Source: Ignavibacteriota bacterium (GTDB lineage Bacteria > Bacteroidota > Ignavibacteria > UBA10030 > UBA6906). Taken from it: a DNA stretch of 64,000 nucleotides. The position numbers and the translations under genes were made by a program. Under the pieces are notes generated by a model that was not told the origin of the DNA, did not search any database, and was given only the letters and a program-made list of their open reading frames with translations. Positions 11,556 to 60,716 of the stretch are shown piece after piece; within the stretch, counting starts at the first letter, position 1, and each line of letters begins with the position of its first letter. The DNA lies in assembly GCA_963801355.1 (NCBI GenBank), contig CAWDEM010000008.1, forward strand, positions 64,001 to 128,000. The letters are read 5' to 3'.

Positions 11556-11586
11556 GGGGGGATCAACAGATAAAAGGCATCTGGAT

Positions 11587-15648: not shown

Positions 15649-15650
15649 AC

Positions 15651-28700: not shown

Positions 28701-28840
28701 TGCGAACCAGACATTTTGAGACGTCAACCCCGAGCTTCCGCATCTCGCCGTGAATCCTTGGAACTCCCCGTAGAGTGTTTGGATTGGCCCTCTGTTTGAT
28801 TAGATTGATCTGCACGTGGGCGATCGCTGCCCTGCCAAGG
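28701..28840 (-). pseudogene. Degenerate fragment of an rve-type integrase/transposase
   Basis: Translates GRAAIAHVQINLIKQRANPNTLRGVPRIHGEMRKLGVDVSKCLVR, resembling the 'GRP.I...LIR.MA..NPLWG.PRIHGEL.KLG..VS' segment of integrase-core transposases. Confidence 0.65.
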
Positions 28841-28897
28841 GTATCGATTTCAAAGGGAATTCGCTATTTTATTGCGGACGGAAAAGGAGCAAACAAA

Positions 28898-29998: not shown

Positions 29999-30101
29999 AG
30001 CTGAACACAATGTCAGTCATCGTTCCGAACACAACTGCGATGACACGGTCCGGAATGATTGACGCCCTCCCACTCACACATAAGACGATTGAGGCGGCAC
30101 C

Positions 30102-30959: not shown

Positions 30960-31023
30960 GTTCTCAATTTGTGCAACTCCAACATCAGCGGGATTCTCTC
31001 TGATTTAGCCGGAGGCATTTCAA

Positions 31024-32482: not shown

Positions 32483-32530
32483 AAACGCAAAACGCCATTG
32501 TTGGCGCATTCCTGCCCGCAAGGAGAATCC

Positions 32531-34558
32531 ATGATTTCCCGTGCAGCTTTCATCCCACTGACTTTCTGTTTCCTCTTGGGTCTCCAGAATGCTCCGGCTG
32601 CTCCCCCCGATGAGGGGGTCTTTTTCGATCCGCACGCCGTGGCCCGCTACCGGGCACTGTATGCCGGCAATCCTCTCTTCTCCGTTCTGAGAAAGGATAT
32701 GGACACTGTTGACCGTGCGCGGGAACGGAAATTCTTGCGTTCGGAGGTGCGCTATAATGACCATCTGTATGATATCTCCCGGGTCGGAAATCTTGCGCAA
32801 CAGATGGCGTTGCTCTATGTGTACGCCGGCGACGCCGATGCTGCGGCCCTCGCGCAGGAGTGTGTGGAGACCCTGATGAAGTTTCCGAAGTGGGATTATT
32901 TCCTGGAGGCGGGGACCGACGTTATCGGCTTTCAGCGCGCACCGAATTCTGCTATCGCGGTCGCGATCGTCGTCGAAGCTCTCGGAGAGCGCATCCCCCT
33001 GGCGCTGCGCAAACGCTGGCTCGCGACGATGGCGGAACGTGGTACAGAACCGTGCTACCGCGCTGTCTATGGAATGCGCCACCCGGAGCAGGTGAAGGGG
33101 TGGTCGGTGGACACAACGAGCACGTATTTCATGCACCGCCCCCTGGATCGGGGCCTCAGTCTTGCACGGTGGCCGATGATCCTCAATATCAACAATCTCA
33201 AAGCAGTCCCGGCTTCTGCAGTTGCGCTTTCGGCGCTGGTCTACAGAGAATACTATGGTGAAACCGCCGACACGAAGAGGTGGTTGGAACAGGCGGCGCA
33301 TAGCATCCGGACGTTCCGGGACATCTACAAGCGGGACGGATCGTACGACGAAGGGATTTCGTACGCCCATTACACCACGTTGCACATCATCCAGGCCGTT
33401 GAGGCTTTTCGCCGTACGGGTGTTGCGGACCTGACCGACCTCCTCAATTGGAACGGCTATCAGGACTTCCTCGTCGAAATGACACTGCCTGCACAGGACG
33501 ACCCCAGCGCCATCGTGAATTTCAGTGACGCCAGCACGGGGGCGCATGCATCACCCTCCTTCTGGATTGCCAGGCAGACGAGAGATGGCCTGGCACGCTG
33601 GTTCGGCGAAAACCTTGCACATTCACGGGATATGTGGTCTGTGCTCTATTACGATCCGACCGTCCCCCTCATCCCGCCGCCCCAGAGGACCCATCTGTGG
33701 CTATCGGATCTGGGTTGGATCGTCGGACGGACTGGGTACCAGCCGGCCGATCTTGTGGTTGCCATGCGGAGCGGGGATGCGTACAACCACGAGCACGCGG
33801 ACCGCAACGGCCTCATCTTCAAATGCTTTGGCGAACGACTGGTCGTGGACCCCATGCGGCCTCCATACAGCTTCAGGGATCCTGCCTGGAAAATGCGGCT
33901 GACAGGGGGACACAGTTGCGTGTTGATTGATGGGAAGGGGCATCAATACGTCGATGGACATGACGGGACAAATGCATCGCAGGCGTCGGCAACGATCATA
34001 CGGGCAGGAGAGCGGGATGGGTACTTCTACTGGACGAGCGACGCGACTCGTGCATATGCCCTTGTGCTCCCCGACGTCCATTCTGTCACACGAACAGTTG
34101 TGACGCTCACGGATCCTCCTGCTCTCGTCGTTGTCGACAAGATCATAAAGAGCAGCGAACCTTCAAACGTTCAGGCTCGTTTCTACGCATACAATTCGGA
34201 TGGGAAAGGGACTGTTGCTGCCACGCAGGACGCATTCACGGTGACGAGGCCGTACGCCCGTCTCGTTGGCATTGCCTCATCCGAATCAGGCGTCACGTAT
34301 ACGTCAGCACTACCTGATATTCCCGCCGCACAAGCGCAGCTCTACCCGTTTGCCGAAGTGGGAACCGTGAAGCCGGGGAACGAGATCTGTCTGGTAACGG
34401 TGCTCCTGCCGACTCCGTCGGGCGCGGTCATCGGGACTGCGTCGGTCACGAGGGATGGGTTGATTTACACCGCCCACATTTCCGCTGGCACTCGCTCTGC
34501 ATCGGTGAGAATCATCGATTCTGGAGCAGTACCGGAGTTTCAGGTGGGAGGGGAGTAG
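32531..34558 (+). CDS. Heparinase II/III-like polysaccharide lyase
   Basis: Signal peptide; helical N-half with 'NNL', 'DGSYDEGISYAHY', 'NFSDA'; C-half 'NHEHADRNGLI', 'GHSCVLIDGKG'. Confidence 0.8.
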   Translation: MISRAAFIPLTFCFLLGLQNAPAAPPDEGVFFDPHAVARYRALYAGNPLFSVLRKDMDTVDRARERKFLRSEVRYNDHLYDISRVGNLAQQMALLYVYAGDADAAALAQECVETLMKFPKWDYFLEAGTDVIGFQRAPNSAIAVAIVVEALGERIPLALRKRWLATMAERGTEPCYRAVYGMRHPEQVKGWSVDTTSTYFMHRPLDRGLSLARWPMILNINNLKAVPASAVALSALVYREYYGETADTKRWLEQAAHSIRTFRDIYKRDGSYDEGISYAHYTTLHIIQAVEAFRRTGVADLTDLLNWNGYQDFLVEMTLPAQDDPSAIVNFSDASTGAHASPSFWIARQTRDGLARWFGENLAHSRDMWSVLYYDPTVPLIPPPQRTHLWLSDLGWIVGRTGYQPADLVVAMRSGDAYNHEHADRNGLIFKCFGERLVVDPMRPPYSFRDPAWKMRLTGGHSCVLIDGKGHQYVDGHDGTNASQASATIIRAGERDGYFYWTSDATRAYALVLPDVHSVTRTVVTLTDPPALVVVDKIIKSSEPSNVQARFYAYNSDGKGTVAATQDAFTVTRPYARLVGIASSESGVTYTSALPDIPAAQAQLYPFAEVGTVKPGNEICLVTVLLPTPSGAVIGTASVTRDGLIYTAHISAGTRSASVRIIDSGAVPEFQVGGE

Positions 34559-39650: not shown

Positions 39651-40922
39651 ATGCCTACGGCAGCCGAAATCACAGAATTGGGAAACGACGCCCAAACGTA
39701 CCTGACGAAATCACTCCTTCCCTTCTGGATGGAACGCTCGCCCGACCCTGCCTACGGAGGATTTCTCCCTTTTTTTGATCGCCACGGCAAGCCGACGGGG
39801 GAGACCGAGAAGACATTCCTCTCGCAAATCCGGATGCTGTACACCATGTCAAGTGCCCACCGCGCCGGCTACGGCAACGGCCGCTGCGCCGAACTCGCGG
39901 ATATGTGTGCGCGGTTCATCCTCGATCATTACTGGGATACCACACACGGCGGGTGGTACTGGATCGCGGATCGACAGGGAAACCCGACCAACAAATCCAA
40001 AGTGGGATACGGACACTGCTTCGGGATTTACGCCTTCAGCGAGTATTTTCTTGCAACTGGAAATGCCGAGGGCAAGAAAGCGGCGAATGCGACCTACCAG
40101 GTCGTCTGCGAACATATGGTGGACACACGGCACGGGGGTTTCATCGAGCTCATGCAGCAGGATTGGCAGCCCGACCGCCCGGGCCGCTTCGGCGGGGATC
40201 GGAAGAGCCTGGATGTGCACATGCATATGATGGAGGCATTGACGACCTACTACGAAATGACCGGACATCCCACGCACCGGCGTCGGCTGCTGGAAATCAT
40301 CGACCTCCTGGTTTCTAAAATGCTCCGCCCTGGATCGGGAACAGGGTATTCCCAATTCACCTACAGCTTCGAACCCCTGCCTGCGATCATTTTCGCGACG
40401 ACATGGGGCCGCGACGCAAAACCCGACGAAGGTGACATTCACCCGATTAACTTCACTTCCTACGGTCACAACGTTGAGCTTGCCTGGCTCCTCATGCATG
40501 CAGGTGATGTCCTCGGACAGGGACGGGCTACCTATGAGCCGATCCTCAGGAACATGTGCGATCACTGCATCCGCTTCGGTGTGGACCACACCTACGGCGG
40601 TGTGTACTGCGAAGGACCGGATCAGTCACCAACGACACACACACAGAAGCAATTCTGGCAGCAGGGAGAAGCCCTTGTAGGTATGCTTGACGCCTATCTC
40701 TCGTTCCGGGAAGAACGATACTGGGCCGCATTCCGGAATATCTGGGACTTTGTTTTTGCCCACATGGTCAACATGGAGGGCGGAGGAGAATGGTATGAGC
40801 GGGTGGACCGCGAAGGGAATGTGGTAGACGACGCCCTCGGTCACGGCTGGAAAGTGAACTACCACACTGTGCGGTCCATGATTCAAGTGATACGGCGGCT
40901 GCACAAGATCACGGCTGCGTAG
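39651..40922 (+). CDS. AGE-family sugar 2-epimerase (N-acylglucosamine/cellobiose 2-epimerase-like)
   Basis: 'LLPFW', 'Q.RMLY', 'HMHMMEA', 'SYGHNVE..W', 'FWQQGE', 'WKVNYHTVR'. Confidence 0.88.
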   Translation: MPTAAEITELGNDAQTYLTKSLLPFWMERSPDPAYGGFLPFFDRHGKPTGETEKTFLSQIRMLYTMSSAHRAGYGNGRCAELADMCARFILDHYWDTTHGGWYWIADRQGNPTNKSKVGYGHCFGIYAFSEYFLATGNAEGKKAANATYQVVCEHMVDTRHGGFIELMQQDWQPDRPGRFGGDRKSLDVHMHMMEALTTYYEMTGHPTHRRRLLEIIDLLVSKMLRPGSGTGYSQFTYSFEPLPAIIFATTWGRDAKPDEGDIHPINFTSYGHNVELAWLLMHAGDVLGQGRATYEPILRNMCDHCIRFGVDHTYGGVYCEGPDQSPTTHTQKQFWQQGEALVGMLDAYLSFREERYWAAFRNIWDFVFAHMVNMEGGGEWYERVDREGNVVDDALGHGWKVNYHTVRSMIQVIRRLHKITAA

Positions 40923-40940
40923 CTGTTGAACGGAGTCACC

Positions 40941-42545
40941 ATGACGAATTCTCTCTCCCCTGCCGACATGGTCATCATCGCCGCGTATTTTACCGCAGTG
41001 CTTTCCGTCGGCTTCTATTTCCGTAAGCGGACAAAAAGCCCAACAGAGTACTTTCTTGCCGGCCGGAATGTGGGCTGGATTGCGATAGGAGCATCGCTCT
41101 TTGCCACCAACATCTCCAGTGAACACTTCCTCGGGCTGGCAGGGACAGGTTCAAAATCGGGGCTGGCGGTAGGGCAATTCGAGTGGCTCGCTATCCTGAT
41201 CCTTCTGCTCCTGGGTTGGGTGTTCACTCCATTTTATCTTCGCTCGGGCGTCTTTACCATGCCAGAGTTCCTTGAGCGCCGTTTTGGTCCCGCTTCACGG
41301 TACTATCTCAGTTTTGTCTCCATCGTAGCATATATCCTCACGAAGATCTCCATATCACTCTATGCCGGAGGAATCCTTCTGCATGCAGTTGTCGGATGGG
41401 ATATGTATACGTCCGCTTTCGTGATAGTGGTTGCCACGGGCGCATATACTGTTCTGGGCGGACTTGCTGCGGTGATCTACACGGATCTCCTGCAGATGTT
41501 CATTCTCATCTTCGGATCGGTGATGCTCACGCTGATCGGACTTCAACAGGCAGGCGGCTGGGAGAGGGTGGTTGCCACGACACCCCCTGAGTTCTGGAGC
41601 ATGTTCAAACCGATGAACGACCCGGATTTCCCCTGGACGGGGATACTGCTCGGTGCACCCATCATGGGAATCTGGTACTGGTGCACCGATCAATATATCG
41701 TGCAGCGTGTCTTGAGCGCAAGGAATCTCGATCAGGCGCGGAGCGGGACAATATTCGCGGGATTCCTGAAGATCCTTCCGGTATTCATCCTGGTGCTGCC
41801 GGGCCTCATTGCCTACAGTCTCTCCAATGGCCAGGTCACCGGTGACAGGGCGTATGCCTGGATGGTGACAACACTGCTGCCGTCGGGCCTGAAAGGATTG
41901 GTGGTTGCCGGACTGCTGGCTGCGCTCATGTCGTCCCTCAGCGCAATGTTTAATTCCACATCGACCCTCTTGACGATCGACATCTTCAAACGTCTCAGAC
42001 CGCAGGCAGATGACGCCAGCGTCGTCCGCTTCGGCAGACTTTCAACAGGGGTCATGGTGGTTCTGGGGCTCCTCTGGATCCCCTTCATTGGCAAGATGAG
42101 TGACGAGCGGATGTTTGTCTACCTCCAGAGCGTTTCGGGATACATCGCCCCACCGATATCCGCCTGTTTCTTGTTTGGCATCCTCTGGAAAAGGGCAAAC
42201 GGACAGGGAGCCATGGCGTGCCTTCTCACGGGCCTTGTTCTCGGCGGTGCCCGCTTCATCCTTGAAATTCAGAACAAAATGTCGCCCCTGACATCGGATG
42301 TTCTCACGTTCATTGCTACGGTGAATTTCCTGCACTACGCGGCATTCCTGTTTCTTGTGTGTTCACTCGTTTTGATTTTTGTCAGCCTGGCGACCGCGCC
42401 GCCCGCGCGCGAACGGATCGTGAACCTGACCTTTGCAGAAGTTGACCGTTCACATGCGCTCGACACAAAGCGGAACGGCGTGAATGCGGCAGCTTCGGTT
42501 GTGCTGGTACTTATCCTGCTTTTCCTCTGGTGGACCTATAGATAG
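40941..42545 (+). CDS. Sodium:solute symporter (SGLT-like)
   Basis: 'YFLAGR...W..IGASLFATNISSEH', 'WYWCTDQYIVQRVL', 'AALMSSL'. Confidence 0.93.
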   Translation: MTNSLSPADMVIIAAYFTAVLSVGFYFRKRTKSPTEYFLAGRNVGWIAIGASLFATNISSEHFLGLAGTGSKSGLAVGQFEWLAILILLLLGWVFTPFYLRSGVFTMPEFLERRFGPASRYYLSFVSIVAYILTKISISLYAGGILLHAVVGWDMYTSAFVIVVATGAYTVLGGLAAVIYTDLLQMFILIFGSVMLTLIGLQQAGGWERVVATTPPEFWSMFKPMNDPDFPWTGILLGAPIMGIWYWCTDQYIVQRVLSARNLDQARSGTIFAGFLKILPVFILVLPGLIAYSLSNGQVTGDRAYAWMVTTLLPSGLKGLVVAGLLAALMSSLSAMFNSTSTLLTIDIFKRLRPQADDASVVRFGRLSTGVMVVLGLLWIPFIGKMSDERMFVYLQSVSGYIAPPISACFLFGILWKRANGQGAMACLLTGLVLGGARFILEIQNKMSPLTSDVLTFIATVNFLHYAAFLFLVCSLVLIFVSLATAPPARERIVNLTFAEVDRSHALDTKRNGVNAAASVVLVLILLFLWWTYR

Positions 42546-42564
42546 GCATGGGGACTACGTGTGT

Positions 42565-43575
42565 ATGCACACTCGACTCCATATCCACATTCTCACCCCG
42601 GCGCATGGTGCCGGTTTGCGCCGTTCGGCCGCCATCCTTGCTGCAGTTCTCCGCCAATCCGATTTTGAAGTGACAGTGACAGTCTTTCATGGTGAATTCA
42701 AGTCACGCATCAGGCGGGCGATCAGGAAGCTCGGCGGTTCCATGGTGCGCCGGCCGCTGTATGACATGAACATTTTCCTGGAATCAGCGAAGCCCGGATG
42801 GTTTCGGTACGCGCGCATCAATTGTCTCATTCCGAATCAGGAATGGATGAGAGACGACACCACGAAATTTCTCCCGACATTTGACTGGGTGCTTTGCAAG
42901 ACACGGCATGCAGAACAGATTTTCAACCGGCTGGGGTGCCGCACGCGCTTCGTCGGATTCACCGGCGTTGACCGGTTCGACGGCACGGTGACGCACAACT
43001 ATGACAGCTTTGTCCACATCGCCGGCAGCAGCGAATTGAAGGGTACCGGGACTCTGGTCCAATGCTGGTTGCGGCACCCGGAATGGCCCCGGCTGAAAGT
43101 GCTCTGGCATGCCCAAGGGATTTCGGCCACTCCAGCCCCCAATATCAAGTGGGTAACCTCACGTGTTGACGAGAGGACGCTCCGCCGGCTTCAGAACAGC
43201 CACAGTGTCCATTTCTGCCTGTCGGCGGCGGAGGGCTTCGGTCATTATATCGTCGAAGCCATGAGCTGCAAGGCCGTTGTTTTTGCGACAGACGCACCGC
43301 CGATGAATGAGCTTGTGCAGCCGGACCGGGGTATTCTGGTGCCGTATGCAGAAGAGCGGACCATGGGGCTGAGTAAAGGCTATCGCGTAGATGATGCAGC
43401 GATAGAGAAATCGGTTGAAGCTCTCGATCACATGAACACCGAAGAACGGAAGCGCAAGGGAGAGAATGCGCGTACGTGGTATATCGAGAATGATCGTCTA
43501 TTCCGGCAACGGCTCGCCACAACGATTAAAGCATTGTCGAATGATGATCCCGGCGATGGGATCCTGCTTTCCTGA
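42565..43575 (+). CDS. GT-B (GT4-like) glycosyltransferase
   Basis: 'EGFGHYIVEAM' E-x7-E motif; 'TDAPPMNELV'. Confidence 0.82.
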   Translation: MHTRLHIHILTPAHGAGLRRSAAILAAVLRQSDFEVTVTVFHGEFKSRIRRAIRKLGGSMVRRPLYDMNIFLESAKPGWFRYARINCLIPNQEWMRDDTTKFLPTFDWVLCKTRHAEQIFNRLGCRTRFVGFTGVDRFDGTVTHNYDSFVHIAGSSELKGTGTLVQCWLRHPEWPRLKVLWHAQGISATPAPNIKWVTSRVDERTLRRLQNSHSVHFCLSAAEGFGHYIVEAMSCKAVVFATDAPPMNELVQPDRGILVPYAEERTMGLSKGYRVDDAAIEKSVEALDHMNTEERKRKGENARTWYIENDRLFRQRLATTIKALSNDDPGDGILLS

Positions 43576-49739: not shown

Positions 49740-52700
49740 ATGTGCATCAAGGGCATCCCGCTTTTCCTACTCCCCGTTTTGTCTCTGTGTTTCTTTTCTA
49801 ATACGAGGGCAGCACAAATGCAGACAATCGTCTCACAGGTCAGCGTCAACCAGTTGCGATGTGAAGGCTTGTCCGATCCCCAGGGCATCGATGTGACGAC
49901 ACCACGCCTCAGCTGGATACTGGAATCCGACGAGCGAAGCCAGAAGCAGACGGCGTATCAGATACTTGTCGCTTCATCACCGGAACTCCTGCGAAAGGCC
50001 GAGAGTGACCGATGGAATTCCGGAAAAGTCCGGTCGGGGCAGTCCATTCAGGTCACCTACAAGGGCGCGCCACTGGCATCGGGAATGCCCTACTACTGGA
50101 TGGTGCGGATCTGGGACCGCAAAGGAAAGCCGTCACACTGGAGCCCTGTTGCGGAGTGGACGATGGGATTATTGAAGGAGAATGATTGGAAGGGGAAATG
50201 GATCGGTCTGGATGGGGTGGACACAACATACCACCTCGCGAGCACCAGCTGGATCTGGTACCCGGGCGGGCAACCGGAAAAGGCGGCACCCCTGGGGACG
50301 CGGTACTTTCGCCGTACGATCGTGATCCCTGAAGGCCGCACGGTGCAACGCGCACTCCTGTACGCCACGGCGGATGACTACGCGGAGTTCTTTTTGAATG
50401 ACGTACCCATCTGCACGACAACGAGCCATCGCCTTATCGCCGAGCTGAGAAACGTGCCGGGTGTCCGCACGGGGAAGAATGTTCTGGCGGTATCTGTGCG
50501 CAATCTCCCCATTCCCAATGAAGGGGACCGCCCAAATCCTGCGGGCCTCGTCGGGATGTTCGAAATCCGGTTCACGGACGGGACTTCCTTGCTCATTCCG
50601 ACCGACTCATTGTGGAAGACAGCCGACACGGCGACAGCGGGGTGGCAAATGGTGGAATTCGATGACGCGCACTGGGTAACCGCTCAGACGCTCGGTCCTG
50701 TGGGGATGCCTCCCTGGGGGAAGAAAAGCGGTGTGGCAAACAGGCGTCTCGCGGCACGATGGCTGCGGAAAGAGTTCACCCTTGACAGGCCCATCCGCAG
50801 GGCAACGGTGTACATGAGCGGCCTGGGATTGTCTGAACTGCACATCAACGGAAAGAAGATCGGCGATCACGTGCTTTCGCCTGCGTTGAGCGAATATCCC
50901 AAACGGGTGTTCTATGTGACGCATGATGTGTCGGGGGCTCTCGCTCCGGGGCGAAATACGCTCGGCGTCATTCTCGGCAACGGCAGGTACTATGCACCGA
51001 GACTGGGCTCGCCGACTGTCACGCAAACCTATGGCTATCCCAAACTGCTCCTGCAACTGCGGATCGAGAACGAAGATGGTACGACCGGGGATGTGGTGAG
51101 TGACGAATCGTGGAGGTTGAGCACGGATGGCCCCATCATCGCCAATAACGAATACGACGGCGAGGAATACGACGCGAGGAAAGAATTTGAAGGCTGGTCA
51201 TCCTCCGGGTTCAACGACGGAACCTGGCAGGTTCCCGCGATCGTTTCGCCGCCAGGCGGGGTGCTGAGTGCCCAGATGATCAGACCAATCCGGGTGGTTG
51301 AGACCCTGAAGCCGGTCTCGGTCAAAGAGCAGCGCCCGGGGGCGTTTATTTTTGACATGGGGCAGAACGTGGTCGGATGGTGCCGTCTCCGCGTACAGGG
51401 TGCGCGCGGATCGCAAATTTCCCTCCGTCACGCAGAGACCCTCAAGCCCGATGGAGAGCTGTACCTGGACAACATCCGGGGAGCAAAGGTAACCGATCTG
51501 TACACGCTGAAAGGCGAAGGAGAGGAAGTCTTCGAGCCTCGATTCACGTATCACGGTTTCCGGTTCGTGGAGATGACTGGATTTTCGGGCCGGCCGGAGA
51601 TCTCGGCGATCGAAGGCCGGGTCGTGAACGATGACGTTGAAACGGCCGGAGCATTCACGTGTTCACATCCGGTCATCAATAGAACCTACCGCAGTGTTGT
51701 GAGGGGCGTCCAGGGCAACTACAGAAGCATACCCACGGATTGCCCGCAGCGGGATGAACGGCAGGGATGGCTCGGCGATCGATCCGCTGAGTCCCGGGGT
51801 GAGTCATACCTTTTTGACATCGGAGCGTTGTATGCCAAATGGACGCAGGATATGGCCGACGCACAGAAACCGAACGGGAGCGTGAGCGATGTGTGTCCCG
51901 CGTACTGGCCCCTCTACAATGACAATGTCACGTGGCCGAGCAGCACGGTGATCATCCCCGGCGCGCTGTACGATCAGTATGCCGACACAGCGTTGATCCG
52001 CCGTCACTATCCGAGCATGGTGAAGTGGATCGATCACATGAGTGCCTACATCAAGGACGGGGTCATCGAGAAGGACACCTATGGCGACTGGTGCGTACCC
52101 CCGGAAAGTCCGGAATTGATCCACTCGAAGGATCCTCTCCGCAAGACTGCTCCCGGGATTCTCTCAACGAGCTACTTCTACCATGATCTTCAGCTGATGA
52201 CGCGGTTTGCAACGATCACCGGGAACGCACCCGATGCGAAGCGCTTTGCGGCACTGGCACGCAGTCTGAAGGAGGGTCTCCACCGGCGGTACTACAACGA
52301 TTCGCTCGGGTTCTATGACAACGGCTCGCAGACCTCCTGTGTCCTGCCGCTGGCATTCGGCATGGTCCCGTCGCACCTGCGCTCGAAGGTGTTCGCACGG
52401 CTTGTCTGGAAAATCGCCGAGGAGTCCAAAGGGCACATCGGAACGGGTCTGGTTGGCGGGCAGTGGCTCAACGGGGTCCTCACTGATTATGACCGGGCCG
52501 ACCTATCCTTCCGGTTCGCCACGAACACCACGTACCCGAGCTGGGGGTATATGATGGAGAAGGGGGCGACGACGGTGTGGGAGTTGTGGAACGGCGACAG
52601 CGCTGATCCCGCGATGAATTCGGGAAACCATGTCATGCTTGTAGGAGATCTGGTGGTCTGGTTATACGAGCGCGTTGCCGGCATCAGGGCGGATTCCGCG

Positions 52701-53021
52701 CGACCGGGCTTCAAACACGTGCTCATGCGCCCGACGCCGGTAGCCGGTTTGGATTTCGTGCGGGCGGCGCACAAGACGCCCCACGGCCGCATCGAGAGCG
52801 AATGGACGAACCACGCAGGCCGTTTCGACTGGAACATCCGTGTGCCGGTGAACACGACAGCAACGGTGTTCATCCCGGCAACGAGCCTCAAGAGCATCAC
52901 TGAGAGCGGCACACCCGTCAGAAAGGCAGCAGGCGTGCGATATTTGCGGACCGAAGACTCTTCCGCGGTTTTCGCGGTCGAATCCGGCACATATCATTTT
53001 TCGGCTGTTCTTCCGCAGTGA
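49740..53021 (+). CDS. GH78 alpha-L-rhamnosidase, secreted
   Basis: 'PRLSW', 'DMGQN', 'FTYHGFR', 'PTDCPQRDERQGWLGD', 'GATTVWELW', 'NSGNH'; signal peptide from ATG 49740. Confidence 0.93.
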   Translation: MCIKGIPLFLLPVLSLCFFSNTRAAQMQTIVSQVSVNQLRCEGLSDPQGIDVTTPRLSWILESDERSQKQTAYQILVASSPELLRKAESDRWNSGKVRSGQSIQVTYKGAPLASGMPYYWMVRIWDRKGKPSHWSPVAEWTMGLLKENDWKGKWIGLDGVDTTYHLASTSWIWYPGGQPEKAAPLGTRYFRRTIVIPEGRTVQRALLYATADDYAEFFLNDVPICTTTSHRLIAELRNVPGVRTGKNVLAVSVRNLPIPNEGDRPNPAGLVGMFEIRFTDGTSLLIPTDSLWKTADTATAGWQMVEFDDAHWVTAQTLGPVGMPPWGKKSGVANRRLAARWLRKEFTLDRPIRRATVYMSGLGLSELHINGKKIGDHVLSPALSEYPKRVFYVTHDVSGALAPGRNTLGVILGNGRYYAPRLGSPTVTQTYGYPKLLLQLRIENEDGTTGDVVSDESWRLSTDGPIIANNEYDGEEYDARKEFEGWSSSGFNDGTWQVPAIVSPPGGVLSAQMIRPIRVVETLKPVSVKEQRPGAFIFDMGQNVVGWCRLRVQGARGSQISLRHAETLKPDGELYLDNIRGAKVTDLYTLKGEGEEVFEPRFTYHGFRFVEMTGFSGRPEISAIEGRVVNDDVETAGAFTCSHPVINRTYRSVVRGVQGNYRSIPTDCPQRDERQGWLGDRSAESRGESYLFDIGALYAKWTQDMADAQKPNGSVSDVCPAYWPLYNDNVTWPSSTVIIPGALYDQYADTALIRRHYPSMVKWIDHMSAYIKDGVIEKDTYGDWCVPPESPELIHSKDPLRKTAPGILSTSYFYHDLQLMTRFATITGNAPDAKRFAALARSLKEGLHRRYYNDSLGFYDNGSQTSCVLPLAFGMVPSHLRSKVFARLVWKIAEESKGHIGTGLVGGQWLNGVLTDYDRADLSFRFATNTTYPSWGYMMEKGATTVWELWNGDSADPAMNSGNHVMLVGDLVVWLYERVAGIRADSARPGFKHVLMRPTPVAGLDFVRAAHKTPHGRIESEWTNHAGRFDWNIRVPVNTTATVFIPATSLKSITESGTPVRKAAGVRYLRTEDSSAVFAVESGTYHFSAVLPQ

Positions 53022-53063
53022 CAGCCATACACGACATCCCCATCTCAACAGGTGTCAAGCGCA

Positions 53064-54131
53064 ATGGTCTCCAATCCCTTTCTCGGCGTGTTCTTTCACT
53101 GGCTTGGCGGACTTGCCGCTGGTAGTTTCTACGCTCCGTATCGAGCGGTGCGGCAGTGGTCGTGGGAAGTGTACTGGCTTGTCGGAGGGGTGTTCAGCTG
53201 GATTGTCGCGCCGTGGATTATGGCTTCTGTCAACACGAACGAGTTGATCGCGACACTGAGTGAGGCGCCGCGGTCCAGCATCCTCTGGGCCTATTTCTGG
53301 GGAGTCCTGTGGGGTGTGGGGGGGTTGACATTCGGATTGACGATGCGCTACCTCGGCCTCTCGCTTGGCATGGGCGTAGCCCTGGGATACTGTGCCGCCT
53401 TCGGTACGTTGATCCCTCCGATATTCCACGGGGAATTCGTCAGCAAAGTCCTGGGCACGACTTCGGGACTGGTCATTCTTCTGGGCGTGGTGGTCTGTCT
53501 TGCAGGCATTGCGATTGCCGGCCTGGCGGGGAGGTCCAAGGAGAAGGAGATGACCGATGAGCAGAAGAAGGCCACGATCCGTGAATTCAACTTCAGCAAG
53601 GGGATTCTTGTCGGCACAGTTTCGGGTATCCTGAGCGCCTGCATGGCTTACGGGCTGGATGCCGCCGCCCCGATCTCGGAGATTTCGGCCCGGTACGGCA
53701 CATCGGCGCTCTGGACTGGTCTGCCGAAACTCTGCATCGTGTTGCTTGGCGGGTTCACGACGAATTTCATCTGGTGTGTGTTCTTGAACATCCGGAACCG
53801 GACGGGCCGTCAGTACTTCAGCGCCGGCGGTGCCGAACGGGTTCCGATGCTTCGCAACTATTTCTTCAGTGCGCTTGCCGGAGTTGTCTGGTACATGCAG
53901 TTTTTCTTTTACACGATGGGCGAAACGCAGATGGGCGAGTACAAGTTCTCAAGCTGGACCGTCCACATGGCGAGCATAATCATCTTCAGTTCGCTCTGGG
54001 GGATCGCACTGAAGGAATGGGCGGGGAGCAGCCGATCCACCAAGAGAACCCTTGCGCTCGGATTGGCGACTCTTGTGTTCTCGACGATGGTTGTCGGTTA
54101 CGGAAACTTCCTGGGTGCGGGTGCACGGTGA
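53064..54131 (+). CDS. rhaT: L-rhamnose/H+ symporter
   Basis: 'G..FHWLG...AGSFY.P...V..WSWE.YW.VGG.FSW', 'GLTMRYLG.S.G', 'WY.QFFFY.MG', 'SW..HM'. Confidence 0.92.
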   Translation: MVSNPFLGVFFHWLGGLAAGSFYAPYRAVRQWSWEVYWLVGGVFSWIVAPWIMASVNTNELIATLSEAPRSSILWAYFWGVLWGVGGLTFGLTMRYLGLSLGMGVALGYCAAFGTLIPPIFHGEFVSKVLGTTSGLVILLGVVVCLAGIAIAGLAGRSKEKEMTDEQKKATIREFNFSKGILVGTVSGILSACMAYGLDAAAPISEISARYGTSALWTGLPKLCIVLLGGFTTNFIWCVFLNIRNRTGRQYFSAGGAERVPMLRNYFFSALAGVVWYMQFFFYTMGETQMGEYKFSSWTVHMASIIIFSSLWGIALKEWAGSSRSTKRTLALGLATLVFSTMVVGYGNFLGAGAR

Positions 54132-54183
54132 GGGAGCGTGCCAGGGAATCTCTTTCCGGATAATGGTCAGGGAAACGGTAAGC

Positions 54184-54744
54184 ATGGATAGCGGGCTGCT
54201 CAAACTGATCGTGTTTTTCGTGATCTCCTGTTGGCTTGCAGGTATTTCATCGAGGTCATTGCGCGTCGTTCGTTCTCACGGGTTTTTCCGGTTCTTTGCA
54301 TGGGAAGCCATCCTCGCGCTGGTTGTCGTCAACAGTGAAGTCTGGTTCTCCGATCCGTTCTCGATCCGCCAGATCGTCTCATGGGTCTTCTTGCTGATGT
54401 CTCTCATACTGCTGGCACAAGGTCTCTATCTAATACGTGTTGTGGGCAAGCCAGGCAATCAGCGTCAGGATAGCACCTTGCTGTCGTTCGAAAGAACCTC
54501 GCGCCTTGTGACATCCGGCATTTACCAATATATTCGTCATCCCCTGTACGGATCCCTGCTGTTTCTTGCGTGGGGAGCATTTCTTAAGGAAGTAACCTGG
54601 TATTCGGTGTGTCTGGTGGTTGCGGCGACCGTGTTGCTGATCGTGACATCGAAGATCGATGAAGCCGAGTGCGTCCGATACTTCGGCACTGCGTATGAAG
54701 AATACATGAAGAGGACAAAGATGTTCGTTCCGTATCTGTTTTAG
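54184..54744 (+). CDS. ICMT/PEMT-family membrane methyltransferase
   Basis: 'LVTSGIYQYIRHPLY', 'E.....FG.AYEEY..RT..F.P'. Confidence 0.85.
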   Translation: MDSGLLKLIVFFVISCWLAGISSRSLRVVRSHGFFRFFAWEAILALVVVNSEVWFSDPFSIRQIVSWVFLLMSLILLAQGLYLIRVVGKPGNQRQDSTLLSFERTSRLVTSGIYQYIRHPLYGSLLFLAWGAFLKEVTWYSVCLVVAATVLLIVTSKIDEAECVRYFGTAYEEYMKRTKMFVPYLF

Positions 54745-54784
54745 GTGAGTACTGCCTGTTCTACCTTCATGGGAGAATCATTGG

Positions 54785-55342
54785 ATGGAATATCACGGTA
54801 ATCTGACACGGGCGGCTTTCGAGAACGCCCTCACGCCCAGAAGCGTGCAAGTAACCCGGATCATTCAGCTGGCGCTGATGATCGGCGTATGGGTCTACGT
54901 TCTGTGCGTCGTGGTCATCTACTTTGTGTATCAGGACCTGCGTGCCGACGCATACGCGGTAAACATGATCTCGATGATGACGCTCATTCACCTGGCCTTT
55001 CTCGGCGGTGCCCTGGTCCTGGGTCAGCTGCTCTTTCTTCGCATCTTCTCCCCGCGAGGTTTGCCGGCAGCCTTTCCGGAAGCCGATACCGACAAATTGG
55101 CGGCACAGGTCGTGTCGCGGCAACATGTGGCCATTATTGCACGGCTTGCGGCAATGGAAGGAGCTGCGTTCTTCGGTCTTGCCATCTGTACCCTGGGTGC
55201 CGTCAACGGAACTCTCCAGACGGCACCTCTGTACTGGGTCAATATGCTGTCCACACTCCTGCTCCTGGTCTTCGGCGTAGTCACGTTCCCGACGCAGGAA
55301 CGATTGGTCGGTTGGTTCGAAAAGAACTTTACACCGTCGTGA
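54785..55342 (+). CDS. Hypothetical 4-TM membrane protein
   Basis: Four hydrophobic segments; co-oriented, with 40-54 bp gaps to neighbours. Confidence 0.75.
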   Translation: MEYHGNLTRAAFENALTPRSVQVTRIIQLALMIGVWVYVLCVVVIYFVYQDLRADAYAVNMISMMTLIHLAFLGGALVLGQLLFLRIFSPRGLPAAFPEADTDKLAAQVVSRQHVAIIARLAAMEGAAFFGLAICTLGAVNGTLQTAPLYWVNMLSTLLLLVFGVVTFPTQERLVGWFEKNFTPS

Positions 55343-55396
55343 ACGTCGCCGGTCACGACACTCAGAGGCTTCGGCAATAGGGGATATTCTTTACGC

Positions 55397-56446
55397 ATGG
55401 ACCACCGCACGAATGTGTTGAAGGCAATCCGGTTCGAGAACCCTGAGTATGTTCCCATGGTGTTCCACATCAACGCTGCATGCTGGCATCACTATGATCA
55501 TGCGCCGTTACAGGACCTGATGGAAGCGCACCGGTTTCTGTTCCCGAACTTCAGGCGACAGGAAACCGTGGAGCCGCACTACACGCTGAACGAACGAAAA
55601 GACGAGCCGTACACGGACCCGTGGGGGTGTGTGTGGCAAACGATGGATGACGGCATCACCGGAACCGTCCGGGAACACCCCCTTGCAGACTGGTCCAGGT
55701 TCAGTGCATACCGGCCTCCCGATCCGAGCACCACGGACGGCATCTTCCCTCTGGATTGGACCGCCCTTCGTGAACAGGTTGAGGGACGGAAGACTCGCGG
55801 GGAGCTGGTCATTGGCGAGCTGCCGCACGGGCACACCTTCATGCGCCTCATGGACATCAGGGGGTACGAAAACCTCGTTTTCGACATGATGGATAGGGAC
55901 CCACGGTTGACGGCATTACTCGGGATGCTGGAAGAGTTCAATCTTGCGTGTGTCATGCGATGGCTGTCATTGGATCCGGACATCATGGCGTATCCGGAAG
56001 ACCTTGGCATGCAGCTTGGCCCCATGTTGTCCCCGGACAACTTTCGGGAATACATCAGGCCGGTCTATCAGCGGCTCATGAGACCCGCGCGCGACAGGGG
56101 ATGCGTCGTGCATATGCACTCGGACGGAGACATCCGCACGCTCGTTGACGATCTGATCGGGGGAGGTGTGGATGTGCTTAACCTGCAGGATACGGTGAAC
56201 GGCATAGAATGGATTGCCGGCCGGTTGGCCGGCCGGCTGTGTATTGAACTGGATATCGACCGGCAATATGTCACCGCGCGGGGGACACCACGTCAGATCG
56301 ATGAGCTCATACGCGAAGAAGTGAGGGCCCTCGCGAGCAAAGAGGGCGGCTTGATGATGATTTACGGTCTCTATCCCGGTGTGCCACTGGAAAACGTACG
56401 GGCGCTCATGGATGCGATGGAGAAGTACGCCCTGTATTATTCCTGA
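55397..56446 (+). CDS. UroD/MtaA-CmuA superfamily protein
   Basis: 'YTDPWGCVW', 'RGYEN...D', 'EDLG.Q..PMLSP..FREYI.P.Y', 'HMHSDG', 'P.VPLENV.A'. Confidence 0.85.
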   Translation: MDHRTNVLKAIRFENPEYVPMVFHINAACWHHYDHAPLQDLMEAHRFLFPNFRRQETVEPHYTLNERKDEPYTDPWGCVWQTMDDGITGTVREHPLADWSRFSAYRPPDPSTTDGIFPLDWTALREQVEGRKTRGELVIGELPHGHTFMRLMDIRGYENLVFDMMDRDPRLTALLGMLEEFNLACVMRWLSLDPDIMAYPEDLGMQLGPMLSPDNFREYIRPVYQRLMRPARDRGCVVHMHSDGDIRTLVDDLIGGGVDVLNLQDTVNGIEWIAGRLAGRLCIELDIDRQYVTARGTPRQIDELIREEVRALASKEGGLMMIYGLYPGVPLENVRALMDAMEKYALYYS

Positions 56447-56520
56447 GTTGTATATCCCGGGAAATTTGTTTTTTATGATTCATTCAGATATTCACACGCA
56501 CAGACATCCACGGATCATCC

Positions 56521-57390
56521 ATGAAAATCCAAAAAGCCATCATCACCGCGGCGGGGAAGGGCCAGCGCCAGCTTCCCCTGCAGACACTGATTGACCGCGA
56601 CGGCCAGCAGAAGGCGGTGCTGAGCGTGATCATCGATGAGGTGGTGAGGGCCGGCATCAACGACACCTGCATAGTCATTCATCCCGACGATGAGTCCGCC
56701 TTTCGTTCCGTAGCCGGTGACCATGTGCGGCACCTTTCCTTTGTCTATCAGGAAGAGCCGCGGGGATACGGGCATGCCGTTTGGTGTGCCCGGGAGTTTG
56801 CAGGCAAGGAGCCCTTTCTGCACCTGATCGGGGATCACCTGTACGTGAACCGGCGAGACAAGGGGTGTGCACAGCGCGTTGTCGAAACCGCCGAAGCGCA
56901 ATCGTGCGCAGTGTCAGCGGTGCAGGCAACCCGGGAGGGCCTGCTGCCGAATTTCGGAGCGGTGAGCGGCAAGAGGATGCATGGCAGGAACGATCTGTAC
57001 TCGATTGATACCGTCATTGAAAAACCTACCCCCACGGAAGCCGAGCAGCGGTTACTGGTTCCGGGTCTCCGCGCGGGCTATTACCTCTGCTTTTTCGGCA
57101 TCCACGTATTGACCCCCACGGTGATGGAGATCCTCGATCATCAGCTCAAACAGCATGCGGATCACCGGCTCGGGACAATCTCGGATGCGCTTCACCAGAT
57201 GGCGCAGAGGGAGAAGTACCTGGCGCTGGAAATGAACGACTACCGGTACAACGTCGGGATCAAGTACGGCCTGCTGAACGCGCAGCTTGCGCTTGCGCTG
57301 ATCGGGGAGGACCGCGACGAGGTCCTGTCCATGCTCATGGAGCTGCTTCTGCTTCGCGAGCGTTATGCCGGCGAGAGGAACCAGGCATGA
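56521..57390 (+). CDS. Sugar-phosphate nucleotidyltransferase (GalU/RmlA-like)
   Basis: '[12 protein letters not shown]', '[10 protein letters not shown]', 'GDH', 'VIEKP'; ATGA overlap with next gene. Confidence 0.88.
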
Positions 57391-60300
57391 GTGCGTTAAC
57401 TGCCATCATCACCACTGAAGACCGGCGGGTGCGCGATCAGGCCCTGGATGCCTTTTGCCGGTCAGCCTCGCTGGAGCAGCTGCTCGACGAATGCAGCGCT
57501 CTTGAGGATTTCCGCCAGACCGCCACGAACCTCTACGAACAGGTCCGGGCACTTTTCTTTCTGTACGCCATTCACCGCTTTCACATTCCCGTGAAACCCG
57601 GGCTGCCCCTCCGCGGGTTGATCCCGTTCAACGGTTACAATGATCTCCTGCACCGCCGCTTTGAAGAGGCCATACAGCAGTTCCTCGCGATACAGTCGGC
57701 AACCGGCCCGTGTGACGGCATCTCGAGCGCCCTGGCTTCTGCATACCGCAGTCTCGGCTTCCAGACGCTTGCCAACCAGGTTCGCGCAAGCGTGCGTGCC
57801 GTGCGGGGGAACCGGTGGATGTTTAGAGCCGGTCATCCGTCAGACCACCCCTTGCGCGTTGTCGCACCCTTAACGAGGAAATCTGACGGCCTCTTTCCTC
57901 TTCTGCATGAATGCACCCCTGTCAGGATGGATTTCTCGCACAGCGGATGGAGTGACATCTTTTTTCTCGGCATGGACTACCCGGAAGGTGCACGTGTCCT
58001 GAATGTCTCCATTGACCTCGCTGTCAGGGAGCACGAAGGGGGGCAGGACGGGGAGCAGAACCCCCGCCCTCCGGTCGAGGCCTATTTCCGGATCATCGAT
58101 ACTCCGGTGATCCGGCTTGCGAGTGCGGATCTCGGTGCGGTCACCGAAGTGACGTCTTTTACGCAGCTCTTTGACTATGCCGCCGACTATCTGGGTCTGC
58201 TGAAAGGAGCGGTCATTGCATCGGGTATCGTCCCTCCGGGCATGGAGGGTGCCAATCAGCCGCTTGCGGATCTTCTGGCGCGATTGATCGGGCCCGGGCT
58301 GGGCATTGAAATCGTCAGCCAGGTGAACGGCATCCCTAAAGGGTCGCGTCTTGCCGTGTCGACCACGCTGCTCGCTTCGATTATCACCGTCTGCATGCGC
58401 GCCACCGGACAAATCTCATCCCTCACGGGCACCATGACCGAGGATGAGCGGCGTACCGTCGCGGCGCGGGCAATTCTGGGTGAATGGCTGAGCGGTTCGG
58501 GCGGCGGCTGGCAGGATTCCGGGGGAGTCTGGCCCGGCATCAAGCTTATCCAGGGAGTGTGCAGTCAGGAAGGCGACATCGAGTTCGGTGTCAGCCGCGG
58601 ATGCTTGTTGCCCCGCCACACGATTCTCCTCAACGACGATGTCTCCGGGCAGACACGGAGGCTTTTGCAGGAGAGCCTCATACTGGTGCATGGAGGTATG
58701 GCGCAGGATGTCGGGCCCATTCTGGAAATGGTGACAGAACGGTACCTGCTCCGCTCGGAAAAGGAATGGCTCGGCCGGCAGCAGGCGCTGACGCTCTTCG
58801 ATCAGATCGTGTCACAGCTGCGGGGCGGAGACATTCGTGCGCTGGGGAAGTCCACCCACCAGAACTTCGTCGGCCCGATTCAGACTGTCATCCCGTGGGC
58901 CACCAACCTCTATACCGAATCGATCATAGCGGATGTCACGGCAGAGTTCGGCAAGGATTTCTGGGGGTTCTGGATGCTAGGAGGCATGTCAGGCGGCGGC
59001 ATGGGTTTCCTTTTCGAACCATCGCGCAGGAGTCAGGCGCAAACACGTTTGCGGGAGATCATGGGGGCGCACAAGAAGCGCCTCGAGCACGGTATACCGT
59101 TTGCGATGGAGCCTGTTGTCTACGAGTTTGCCGTCAACGAACAGGGGTCGTCGTCGGAGCTGCTGTGCGGCGGAGCGGCCGTGCTTCCGCGGCACTATTA
59201 TGCCCTCACCGTGCCATCACTCCTGCGCAAGGATCCGCGGAGTATCTCCATCGACCAACGGAACGAACTGGAGCATTTTTCCTCCGCCTGCAGAACACAT
59301 CCGCTCCTGGAGGGGATGCTCGAGCAGATTTTCGACAGGATCCTGCCTGAAGGCGTGACCCAGGCCCATCACGGGCAGACCTTGCCGGAGTTGCTCAAGA
59401 AGTATGGTTTCGATGCAGTGCAACACGAACAAATGAGAGCAGATCTGCGGAATGGCTTCATCGGTCTAGCCCAGAACCGGCTGCCCGTCAACACGACAAT
59501 CGTGGATGTGGAGGAAGGCGACGTCGACGAAATCACCCGAGGTACCTCGCCACGGTATGAATCCACCGGGTCCCATGCCATCGCGGAAGGGACAGTGGGA
59601 GTCCTAACGCTGGCAGCGGGTGCCGGAAGTCGCTGGACGAAGGGGGCGGGGACCGTGAAAGCACTGAACCCGTTTTGCCGCATCGGCAGCGCTCACAGGA
59701 CCTTCATTGAAACGCACCTGGCGAAAAGCAGCCTCTCCATGAAACGGTTCAAGACTGTCATTCCGCACATCGTCTCCACGGGCTATCTCACGCACGATGC
59801 CATCACACAGTATCTCGACCGGGTGGCAAACCACGGTTACGCTGGCGATGTGCACCTTTCACCGGGAGGCATCATCGGGTTGCGGCTGATTCCCACGCTG
59901 CGGGACCTTCGCTATGCATGGCACGAAATGCCTCAGCAGCTGCTCGACGAACAGGCACAAAAGGTGCAGGAGAGCCTCCGTTCCTCGTTGATGGACTGGG
60001 CGGAACGGAGCGGTGAGGCGAGTGACTACACCGACAATCTCCCGATGCAGTGCCTTCATCCGGTCGGACACTGGTACGAGGTTCCCAACCTTCTGCGCAA
60101 CGGGGTCCTGCTGAAGGTCCTCAAGATACATCCAAAACTGAAGCACCTTCTCGTGCACAATATCGACACGATGGGAGCAAACGTCGATCCGGCCATCCTC
60201 GGTCACCACATTGAAAGCAATGCCGGCATGACCGTCGAGGTCATCACGCGGAGACTGGATGACCGGGGTGGAGGATTGGCGAGGACCGACGGGAGGGTGC

Positions 60301-60716
60301 GGCTGATCGAGGGGCTCGCGCTGCCCCGTGAAGAATTCGAGTTCACTTTGTCGTACTACAATTCCGCCACATACTGGATCGATCTAGACCGGATACTTGC
60401 TGTCTTTGGGCTTGTGCGCGATGACCTGCCGGATGTGCCGAAAGTGACAGAAGCCGTACGGACTGTTGCCTCGCGCATGCCGACGTACATCACGCTGAAG
60501 AGTGTCAAGAAGCGTTGGGGGAAAGGACAGGAAGATGTGTACCCCACGCTTCAATATGAGAAGCTCTGGGGTGATATGACAACCCTGCCGGAATTGCGAT
60601 GCTCCTTCATCGTGGTTCCCCGCCAGCGCGGCCAGCAGCTCAAGGAACCAGCACAGATGGATGGCTGGTTGAGGGATGGATCCTCGGAGTACGTGCGGTC
60701 GCTTTGCGACTGGTGA
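57387..60716 (+). CDS. Fusion of a fucokinase-like GHMP kinase and a UDPGP-family UDP-sugar pyrophosphorylase
   Basis: Kinase: '[13 protein letters not shown]', 'PKGSRLAVS', 'GGGWQD', 'LGGMSGGG'. Pyrophosphorylase: 'LAAGAGSRW', 'PVGH', 'HNID', 'GGGL', 'QYEK', 'VPRQR...LK'. Confidence 0.82.

Follow-up and report, generated by a model that had tools for sequence, protein, structure and literature searches.

A seven-gene row from rhamnosidase to sugar kinase in an Ignavibacteriota genome is probably a lineage-specific juxtaposition that includes an autonomous two-gene module

Does a row of seven closely spaced genes, beginning with an alpha-L-rhamnosidase and ending with a sugar kinase-pyrophosphorylase fusion, constitute a single operon for the salvage and activation of rhamnose? 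The row occupies positions 49740-60716 of a 64,000-nucleotide stretch (hereafter the window) of contig CAWDEM010000008.1 from an Ignavibacteriota bacterium. An earlier note on this DNA had proposed that it does: the GH78 enzyme would free rhamnose or a methylated deoxysugar, RhaT would import it, and the fusion protein together with a nucleotidyltransferase would convert it to a nucleoside diphosphate (NDP)-rhamnose for surface glycans. All seven open reading frames (ORFs) are on the + strand, with gaps of 42, 52, 40, 54, 74 and -4 bp, the last being a 4-bp overlap of the stop of the GalU-like gene with the start of the fusion gene; the co-orientation and gaps given in the note agree exactly with the ORF coordinates, and its family assignments were upheld by Pfam and NCBIfam searches and, for the fourth gene, by hydropathy. 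Our comparisons between genomes point to a different answer. The row is probably a composite produced by lineage-specific juxtaposition, in which the GalU-like gene and the fusion gene (hereafter the pair) form an autonomous two-gene module, and not a rhamnose salvage operon. The features of the row are as follows.

49740..53021, + strand: GH78 alpha-L-rhamnosidase, 1093 amino acids (Pfam)
53064..54131, + strand: RhaT L-rhamnose/proton symporter, 355 amino acids (NF010024, PF06379)
54184..54744, + strand: small membrane protein of the ICMT/PEMT/ERG4 superfamily (methyltransferase-reductase), 186 amino acids (superfamily-level matches)
54785..55342, + strand: protein with four hydrophobic, predicted transmembrane (TM) segments, 185 amino acids, no family (hydropathy)
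55397..56446, + strand: URO-D/MtaA-superfamily protein, 349 amino acids (PF01208)
56521..57390, + strand: atypical GalU-like nucleotidyltransferase, 289 amino acids (PF00483, TIGR01099)
57387..60716, + strand: kinase-pyrophosphorylase fusion, 1109 amino acids (NF009948, PF01704)
57387..57896, + strand: fusion residues 1-170, all-helical N-terminal domain, no family (AlphaFold2 model)
57897..59186, + strand: fusion residues ~171-600, GHMP sugar-1-kinase domain of the fucokinase type (NF009948, Foldseek)
59187..60716, + strand: fusion residues ~601-1109, linker and eukaryote-type UDPGP sugar-1-phosphate uridylyltransferase domain (PF01704, Foldseek)

If the seven genes worked as one unit, the upstream genes might be expected to travel with the fusion gene. 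The matches listed for the fusion protein included at least 8000 relatives, and a scan of one genome per species gave 596 confirmed relatives, of which the best 80 loci, with up to 10 kb on each side, were compared. Their record titles place them in Bacteroidota, Verrucomicrobiota, Planctomycetota, Acidobacteriota, Chloroflexota, Armatimonadota and Calditrichota, as well as in Ignavibacteria, Rhodothermales, Eremiobacteraceae and others. When these loci were searched with the window proteins (tblastn, E <= 1e-5), 78 of 80 had the GalU-like gene immediately before the fusion; the two remaining loci were one with only 290 nt of upstream sequence (L034) and one with a galactokinase-like gene on the other strand (L009). 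Homologues of the GH78, RhaT, ICMT-like, four-TM and URO-D-like proteins, and of the CsgG protein encoded downstream of the row, were found by this search in none of the 80 loci. The claim that the seven genes are one functional unit is not supported by this comparison. The note had named recurrence of rhaT, GH78 or UroD beside the fusion gene as a check on its operon and had listed fusion homologues unlinked to rhamnose genes among the outcomes that would refute it; no such recurrence was seen in the 80 loci, where fusion homologues stood apart from these genes.

Nor did any other gene family accompany the pair. At least two called ORFs were available on both sides in 48 of the 80 loci. An all-against-all comparison of 1031 ORFs from the 80 loci identified, besides the pair, no family present in more than five loci, with the exception of an 11-locus cluster that we presume to consist of antisense ORFs over the GalU-like gene. 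Pfam searches of two ORFs per side from 32 of the 48 eligible loci (the first by number, five dropped) found no GH78, RhaT, URO-D or ICMT family among these 128 flanking ORFs. The flanking ORFs were mixed and often of housekeeping type (ProRS, IF3, PolA, SMC, BamA, Lon), with sugar genes scattered among them: a UDP-glucose dehydrogenase (L010), an RmlD (L023) and a UxaE (L025). We propose that the GalU-like gene and the fusion behave as an autonomous module that is widespread, patchy in its distribution and very strongly conserved.

The same pattern was apparent over much shorter evolutionary distances. The region upstream of the pair could be read in four genomes of the genus, namely the window's own (G000), G001, G003 and G004. 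In G004 the gene order is GH78-RhaT, a DinB-like gene and a 190-amino-acid ORF, ICMT-UroD, the pair, an SDR and an OmdA gene, and then CsgG-Sua5-Der; the four-TM gene is missing. In G001, GH78-RhaT is followed by ~5 kb with GNAT, beta-lactamase-like, DinB-like and tRNA-editing-domain genes and then by the pair, and no ICMT, four-TM or URO-D gene lies between RhaT and the pair. The genes directly upstream of the pair are ETF-beta, ETF-alpha and acyl-CoA dehydrogenase in both G003 and G088, the latter from a sister genus of the same family, in which RhaT and the fusion are on separate contigs. A further genome, G106, has the fusion and no RhaT match at E <= 1e-40. This replacement of the genes between RhaT and the pair, and the presence of the fusion without a RhaT match, are difficult to reconcile with a conserved operon. 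The junction changes within a single genus and the pair stays constant; therefore, the pair is the fixed unit and the content upstream of it is freely variable. A DinB-like gene in the corresponding slot of both G001 and G004 suggests an insertion-prone zone, and the position of GH78-RhaT ahead of the pair, on the same strand in G000, G001 and G004, is consistent with common ancestry of these genomes and a stretch of changing insertions separating the two.

Some details of these relatives deserve a separate record. The beta-lactamase-like gene that shares the RhaT-to-pair slot of G001 with the GNAT and DinB-like genes is of the class A beta-lactamase family (L148:6149-7060). In G004, the fusion gene is present as two overlapping ORFs of 948 and 233 amino acids (L104:5618-8936) and the URO-D-like gene as two tblastn pieces; these splits may be frameshifts or assembly errors in a genome of 10 contigs.

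We then considered what the upstream genes would do by themselves. The GH78 protein has the full set of domains, including the six-hairpin catalytic domain, with Pfam scores all above their cut-offs (PF17389, 338 bits; PF08531, 185; PF25788, 132; PF05592, 112; PF17390, 72). It matched two NCBIfam rhamnosidase equivalogs at 833 and 588 bits, both below their cut-offs, and its single hydrophobic segment, at residues 1-21, resembles a signal peptide. RhaT scored 521.9 bits with NF010024 (cut-off 468), with residues 1-350 aligned to positions 1-346 of the 347 in the profile, and 244.8 bits with PF06379. RhaT homologues (E <= 1e-40) were present in 7 of 61 genomes of the order, and a GH78 gene lay inside the 1.5-kb flanks of one of the eight RhaT loci inspected.

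The note was right that the window has no rhaA, rhaB, rhaD or rhaM: the genome's matches to the RhaA, RhaM and rhamnulokinase models all lie outside it. What the note made of this does not hold. The window's own genome, which is 100% complete at 4.8 Mb, encodes elsewhere RhaA (604 bits), two RhaM and a full-length RhaB-like (rhamnulokinase-like) protein whose 492.6 bits fall just below the equivalog cut-off of 527.95, as well as RmlD (246 bits) and a weak RmlC-like match (35.7 bits); no RhaD was recognised in it with TIGR02624 or TIGR02632. Therefore, the absence of catabolic genes from the window is no argument for salvage. With RhaA, RhaM and the RhaB-like protein present, imported rhamnose has a catabolic route, and synthesis of dTDP-rhamnose appears to be at least partly encoded in the genome. 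Like ordinary rhamnose utilisation loci, the window contains clear members of the GH78 and RhaT families; the difference is that here they stand apart from RhaA, RhaM and the RhaB-like gene. GH78 and RhaT would constitute an ordinary module for the release and uptake of rhamnosides, the product of which could feed the rhamnose catabolic genes elsewhere in the genome.

The three genes between RhaT and the pair would be variable filler. The ICMT-like protein barely exceeded the cut-offs of PF01222 (29.7 bits), PF04191 (30.5) and PF04140 (28.5) and scored 55.8 bits with NF040696 against a cut-off of 160; its orthologues adjoin RhaT and the URO-D-like gene only in G004 and in another genome of the same genus, G002, where a 2.5-kb contig carries RhaT-ICMT-UroD. 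The four-TM protein has four hydrophobic segments by hydropathy and matched nothing in Pfam, NCBIfam or PADLOC. Its gene was not detected at the corresponding position in G004 or G002, and a homologue with 44% identity occurs in G088, ~4 kb upstream of the pair and before the ETF genes. A PADLOC scan of genes 3-7 matched no defence-system model.

The URO-D-like protein matched PF01208 at 46.9 bits (cut-off 23.9) over profile positions 159-346 only, the C-terminal half. The MtaA/CmuA models gave 28-37 bits against cut-offs of 235-400 (TIGR01463, 36.8 against 235.4; NF040654, 35 against 400). By these scores the protein is placed in the superfamily only, with no full-length subfamily match. Orthologues with 68-86% identity are present in three of the four other genomes of the genus, and the best matches outside the genus, among 41 genomes searched, were only 27-33% identical. 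The G003 orthologue (68%) is far from any RhaT, GH78 or the pair; it shares 4 bp with the end of a gene for a PF10091 'putative glucoamylase' (glycoamylase) (L105:3988-6470). The URO-D-like gene thus recurs beside carbohydrate genes.

A second URO-D-like gene, encoding 420 amino acids, is present in the window's own genome at G000:C8:1625512-1626774 on the - strand (L086:7513-8775). In the - strand run around it, genes for a HAD hydrolase and a RhaM mutarotase lie downstream and a gene for a 583-amino-acid protein of no family lies upstream. Because this copy is near RhaM, URO-D-like genes recur near rhamnose or carbohydrate genes in the lineage.

The features of the fusion protein provide a separate view of what the pair may do. 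Its kinase part, residues 177-562, aligned to positions 614-951 of the Fkp model NF009948, and residues 902-1006 matched PF01704 (UDPGP) at 38.3 bits (cut-off 22). No Pfam or NCBIfam match covers residues 1-170. An AlphaFold2 model of the whole protein (mean pLDDT 81, pTM 0.82) is in three parts, comprising a helical domain (residues 1-170), an alpha/beta domain (~171-600) and a third domain (~665-1109), and its low-confidence stretches coincide with glycine-rich active-site loops. The N-terminal helices span H3-H147, with block pLDDT values of 73-95, and this domain is conserved across phyla. In Foldseek searches, the fusion matched full-length FKP (9iit) with an E-value of 4e-19; the middle domain matched the kinase part of FKP (9iip) and the heptokinase WcbL (4usk), each with a TM-score of 0.80; and the last domain matched UAP/UGP structures with E-values of 1e-13 to 1e-15 and target-normalised TM-scores of 0.50-0.63. 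Among solved structures, the sequence matches of the C-terminal part were UDP-glucose pyrophosphorylases (UGPases; 8c0b, 2i5k and 7ppr). The UDPGP part contains an LAGGxGSRW loop and an HNIDTLGA block, which we take to be the nucleotide and sugar-phosphate motifs of this family. The protein is highly conserved: 30 fusion proteins from many phyla aligned over their full length with 71% mean column identity, and the family is ~60-80% identical over 1100 residues.

We compared the kinase domain with FKP residue by residue, using a profile alignment read against the FKP structure paper. In the account of that enzyme (PMC11982464), the sugar is contacted by W599 (stacking on C4-C5-C6), D601 (C3-OH and C4-OH) and Q761 (C4-OH), the leaving group is stabilised by R592, E751 acts in catalysis and D762 is the general base. 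The equivalents of R592, W599, D601, E751, Q761 and D762 in the fusion are R180, W188, D190, E366, Q376 and D377, in that order, and all six are invariant in the 30 sequences. The position of FKP T602 is occupied by Ile191. The model and the alignment support a fucokinase-type GHMP fold in which the catalytic and sugar-contact residues of FKP are kept, and retention of the sugar contacts suggests that the substrate is a sugar shaped like L-fucose. The note's description of the last gene as Fkp-like, with a nucleotidyltransferase partner, stands at the level of fold and residues; its joining of the two with the five upstream genes as one unit is not supported.

One feature of the kinase domain is at odds with FKP. 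The P-loop, AGSGLGTSS in FKP (residues 712-720), is KGSRLAVST in the fusion and is invariant in this form in the 30 sequences, with two glycines replaced (Gly to Arg and Gly to Ala). This invariant replacement, combined with a degenerate GxGTR signature in the partner protein, raised the possibility that the GHMP domain is a ligand sensor or regulator and not a kinase. The fusion would then be a regulated UDP-sugar pyrophosphorylase, and the GalU-like protein a second, non-catalytic subunit similar to GalF, presumably itself a non-catalytic relative of GalU. We consider this unlikely, without dismissing it: the equivalents of D762, E751, R592, W599, D601 and Q761 are all invariant in the 30 sequences, and the P-loop serines S719 and S720 are retained as Ser and Thr.

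The partner protein is itself unusual. It scored 49.5 bits with PF00483 and 98.8 bits with TIGR01099 (GalU), below the cut-off of 326.8, and its closest solved relatives are YngB and GalU. It shares with these the fold, a Q-x-EP-x-G-x-GHA block, the GDH aspartate and the EKP lysine, and the last two residues (D105 and K168) are invariant across 20 family members. Unlike GalU, it does not have an intact GxGTR signature; the 20 members have AAGxxQR instead, in which Q15, in place of Thr, is invariant and the second Gly and the Arg vary. Predictions of a complex between the GalU-like protein and fusion residues 1-600 gave scores of 0.00, 0.66 and 0.02 against a mark of 0.32 and were used neither way.

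We also examined longer proteins that contain the GalU-like domain. They form 17 clusters, almost all of them single-member, and in 15 of these (P0122-P0137) the GalU-like part is followed in frame by a partial fusion; none aligned over the full fusion length. We rejected them as natural three-part proteins, as they are probably frameshift or assembly artefacts given the 4-bp overlap of the two genes.

From these features, conversion of a free sugar to a UDP-sugar is the most likely function of the pair. The GHMP domain would phosphorylate the anomeric hydroxyl (C1) of the free sugar with ATP, and the UDPGP domain would couple the resulting sugar-1-phosphate to UTP, giving the UDP-sugar and pyrophosphate. 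For the GalU-like protein we envisage either an accessory or regulatory role as a subunit or activity as a second nucleotidyltransferase. A catabolic use of the same chemistry, in the manner of an Isselbacher-like shunt, can also be imagined: kinase and UDPGP domains would produce UDP-sugar X, a housekeeping epimerase would convert it to UDP-glucose, and the GalU-like protein, running in reverse, would release glucose-1-phosphate and recycle the UTP and pyrophosphate. Such a shunt could account for two nucleotidyltransferases beside one kinase and for the lack of a linked glycosyltransferase. An epimerase is likewise missing from the surroundings of the pair, and the nucleotide-binding signature of the partner is degenerate; both argue against the shunt, which we regard as very unlikely.

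Several observations weigh against our reading of the row as a composite with an autonomous UDP-sugar module. The gaps in the seven-gene row are short and no terminator was predicted within them, and in G004 only ~10 nt separate the URO-D-like stop from the GalU-like start, so that read-through transcription across the row is plausible. In G000, G001 and G004, though not in G003, the pair is preceded at a distance of 2.4-5 kb by GH78-RhaT on the same strand, and some lineage-specific functional coupling of GH78-RhaT with the pair could exist. L-rhamnose is a 6-deoxy-L-hexose like L-fucose and may be compatible with the residues of the kinase pocket. Finally, with a non-canonical P-loop and a degenerate signature in the partner, either catalytic step might fail.

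The layout of the row is less informative than it first appears. Co-oriented runs of 4-5 genes are the norm in this window. A scan for sigma-70 promoters and terminators returned site counts that were not above those of shuffled sequence, a regular-expression search for the Bacteroidetes -7 motif gave no match in the gaps, and no conserved promoter element was seen upstream of the GalU-like gene. The 74-bp spacer ahead of that gene (56447-56520) is AT-rich, with a GC content of 0.39 compared with 0.47-0.56 in the other gaps, and is not present in G004. No RNA sequencing run that contains this DNA was listed. Co-orientation with short gaps, the position of GH78-RhaT upstream of the pair in three genomes, a kinase pocket that keeps the Trp and Asp holding the 6-deoxy-L-hexose in FKP, and a second URO-D-like gene that only a HAD-hydrolase ORF separates from a rhaM copy would all favour the salvage operon of the earlier note. 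Set against the absence of all five upstream genes from the 80 fusion loci, the replaced junctions within the genus, G106 with its fusion and no RhaT match and the rhamnose genes encoded elsewhere, they leave that operon highly improbable. A related reading joins the two halves differently: the pair would be a one-chain route from a free 6-deoxy-L-hexose to a UDP-sugar (e.g., UDP-L-rhamnose or UDP-L-fucose), with the GalU-like protein as a regulatory subunit, and would have been captured downstream of the rhamnoside module, to act in this genus on scavenged rhamnose. We hold this to be a distant prospect as well.

The distribution of the pair bears on whether it could have a housekeeping role. 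Of 151 genomes of the phylum with a completeness of 90% or more, five have the fusion; the sample includes four other genomes of the family, one of which has it. For all its conservation, the pair is thus an accessory module of patchy occurrence. The window's own genome, complete as it is, has no GalU above the TIGR01099 cut-off, the best match being the partner gene itself (78.2 bits against 326.8), and the fusion is its sole match to PF01704, a family matched in 0 of 14 control prokaryote genomes. The missing GalU, the single UDPGP-family gene, and the housekeeping genes that often neighbour the pair in other genomes, would fit a pair that replaces canonical GalU as the UDP-glucose pyrophosphorylase system of the cell. 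We ranked this possibility low because of the patchy distribution: most relatives do without the pair. In addition, a pathway that starts at glucose-1-phosphate would have no use for a fucokinase-type domain whose sugar pocket is intact. On balance, replacement of GalU is quite unlikely, and an accessory route from a free sugar to a UDP-sugar remains our preferred reading of the pair.

How does this module compare with known systems? We liken the fusion to FKP/FKGP of Bacteroides fragilis (PDB 5yys, 9iit, 9iip; PMC11982464) in its predicted working, as both have a fucokinase-type GHMP anomeric kinase, with six equivalent residues, joined to a sugar-1-phosphate nucleotidyltransferase in one chain that would take a sugar to an NDP-sugar in two steps. 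The fusion is not a member of the FKP family, scoring 69.7 bits with NF009948 against a cut-off of 721. In its chain the kinase precedes the nucleotidyltransferase, the reverse of FKP; its pyrophosphorylase is of the UDPGP type (PF01704) and C-terminal, in contrast to the N-terminal NTP_transferase/beta-helix GDP-fucose type of FKP; and it has an extra helical N-domain of 170 residues, the KGSRLAVST P-loop, Ile in place of T602 and a separate, adjacent GalU-like gene (78 of 80 loci). With eukaryote-type UGPase, UAP/AGX and USP (PF01704), the fusion shares the fold and the central sequence block and differs in that the domain stands behind a kinase and the host is bacterial. The zebrafish glucuronokinase/putative UDP-glucuronic acid pyrophosphorylase (PMC3938481), compared only by its description in the abstract of that report, is likewise a fusion of a GHMP sugar-1-kinase and a pyrophosphorylase for salvage to a UDP-sugar; its pyrophosphorylase, however, resembles bacterial nucleotidyltransferases and not UDPGP, and it is an animal protein with glucuronic acid as substrate.

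Current annotation offers little further guidance. Where relatives of the fusion are named, they are called "UTP--glucose-1-phosphate uridylyltransferase", "UDP-N-acetylglucosamine pyrophosphorylase" or "ugp", and others are "hypothetical"; a protein atlas returned solely clusters of the same family, all with one automatic name. A full-text literature search, judged by titles and the openings of abstracts and with paywalled work outside its reach, found neither a paper on this family in bacteria nor one on NDP-rhamnose formation by way of a kinase, and no description of bacterial salvage to donors of the UDP-L-rhamnose or UDP-L-fucose type. An architecture in which a fucokinase-type kinase precedes a eukaryote-type UDP-sugar pyrophosphorylase, with an atypical GalU-like protein as partner, is uncharacterised.

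Other parts of the window contain further carbohydrate and surface genes. One + strand run at 28775-34558 encodes a GH88 unsaturated glucuronyl hydrolase, a xylose-isomerase-like TIM-barrel protein, a 405-amino-acid protein of no family and a heparinase II/III-like protein, and is a possible uronic-acid polysaccharide locus. The co-oriented genes at 39651-43575 comprise an N-acylglucosamine 2-epimerase-like gene, a sodium:solute symporter and a GT1-family glycosyltransferase. Five large proteins with the C-terminal sorting domain (Por_Secre_tail) of the type IX secretion system (T9SS) are encoded at 859-3066, 8931-17831 and 26502-28700, and contain Kelch repeats, a PKD domain, a beta-helix, BNR repeats and laminin-G domains (one each); the first T9SS group adjoins a Y_Y_Y-type hybrid sensor kinase and a LuxR-type response regulator. 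Judged from these genes, the organism would be T9SS-bearing, and the other operons of the window appear unrelated.

A rhamnose operon, if true, would have meant that nucleotide sugars are salvaged by a new pathway; the evidence is against such an operon. The case shows that co-orientation and short gaps alone can mimic an operon. The two-gene module itself is found in hundreds of species of Chloroflexota, Planctomycetota, Verrucomicrobiota, Acidobacteriota, Bacteroidota and other phyla, and once its sugar is named, bacterial glycobiology would gain a further route to nucleotide sugars, from which a one-pot biocatalyst might follow.

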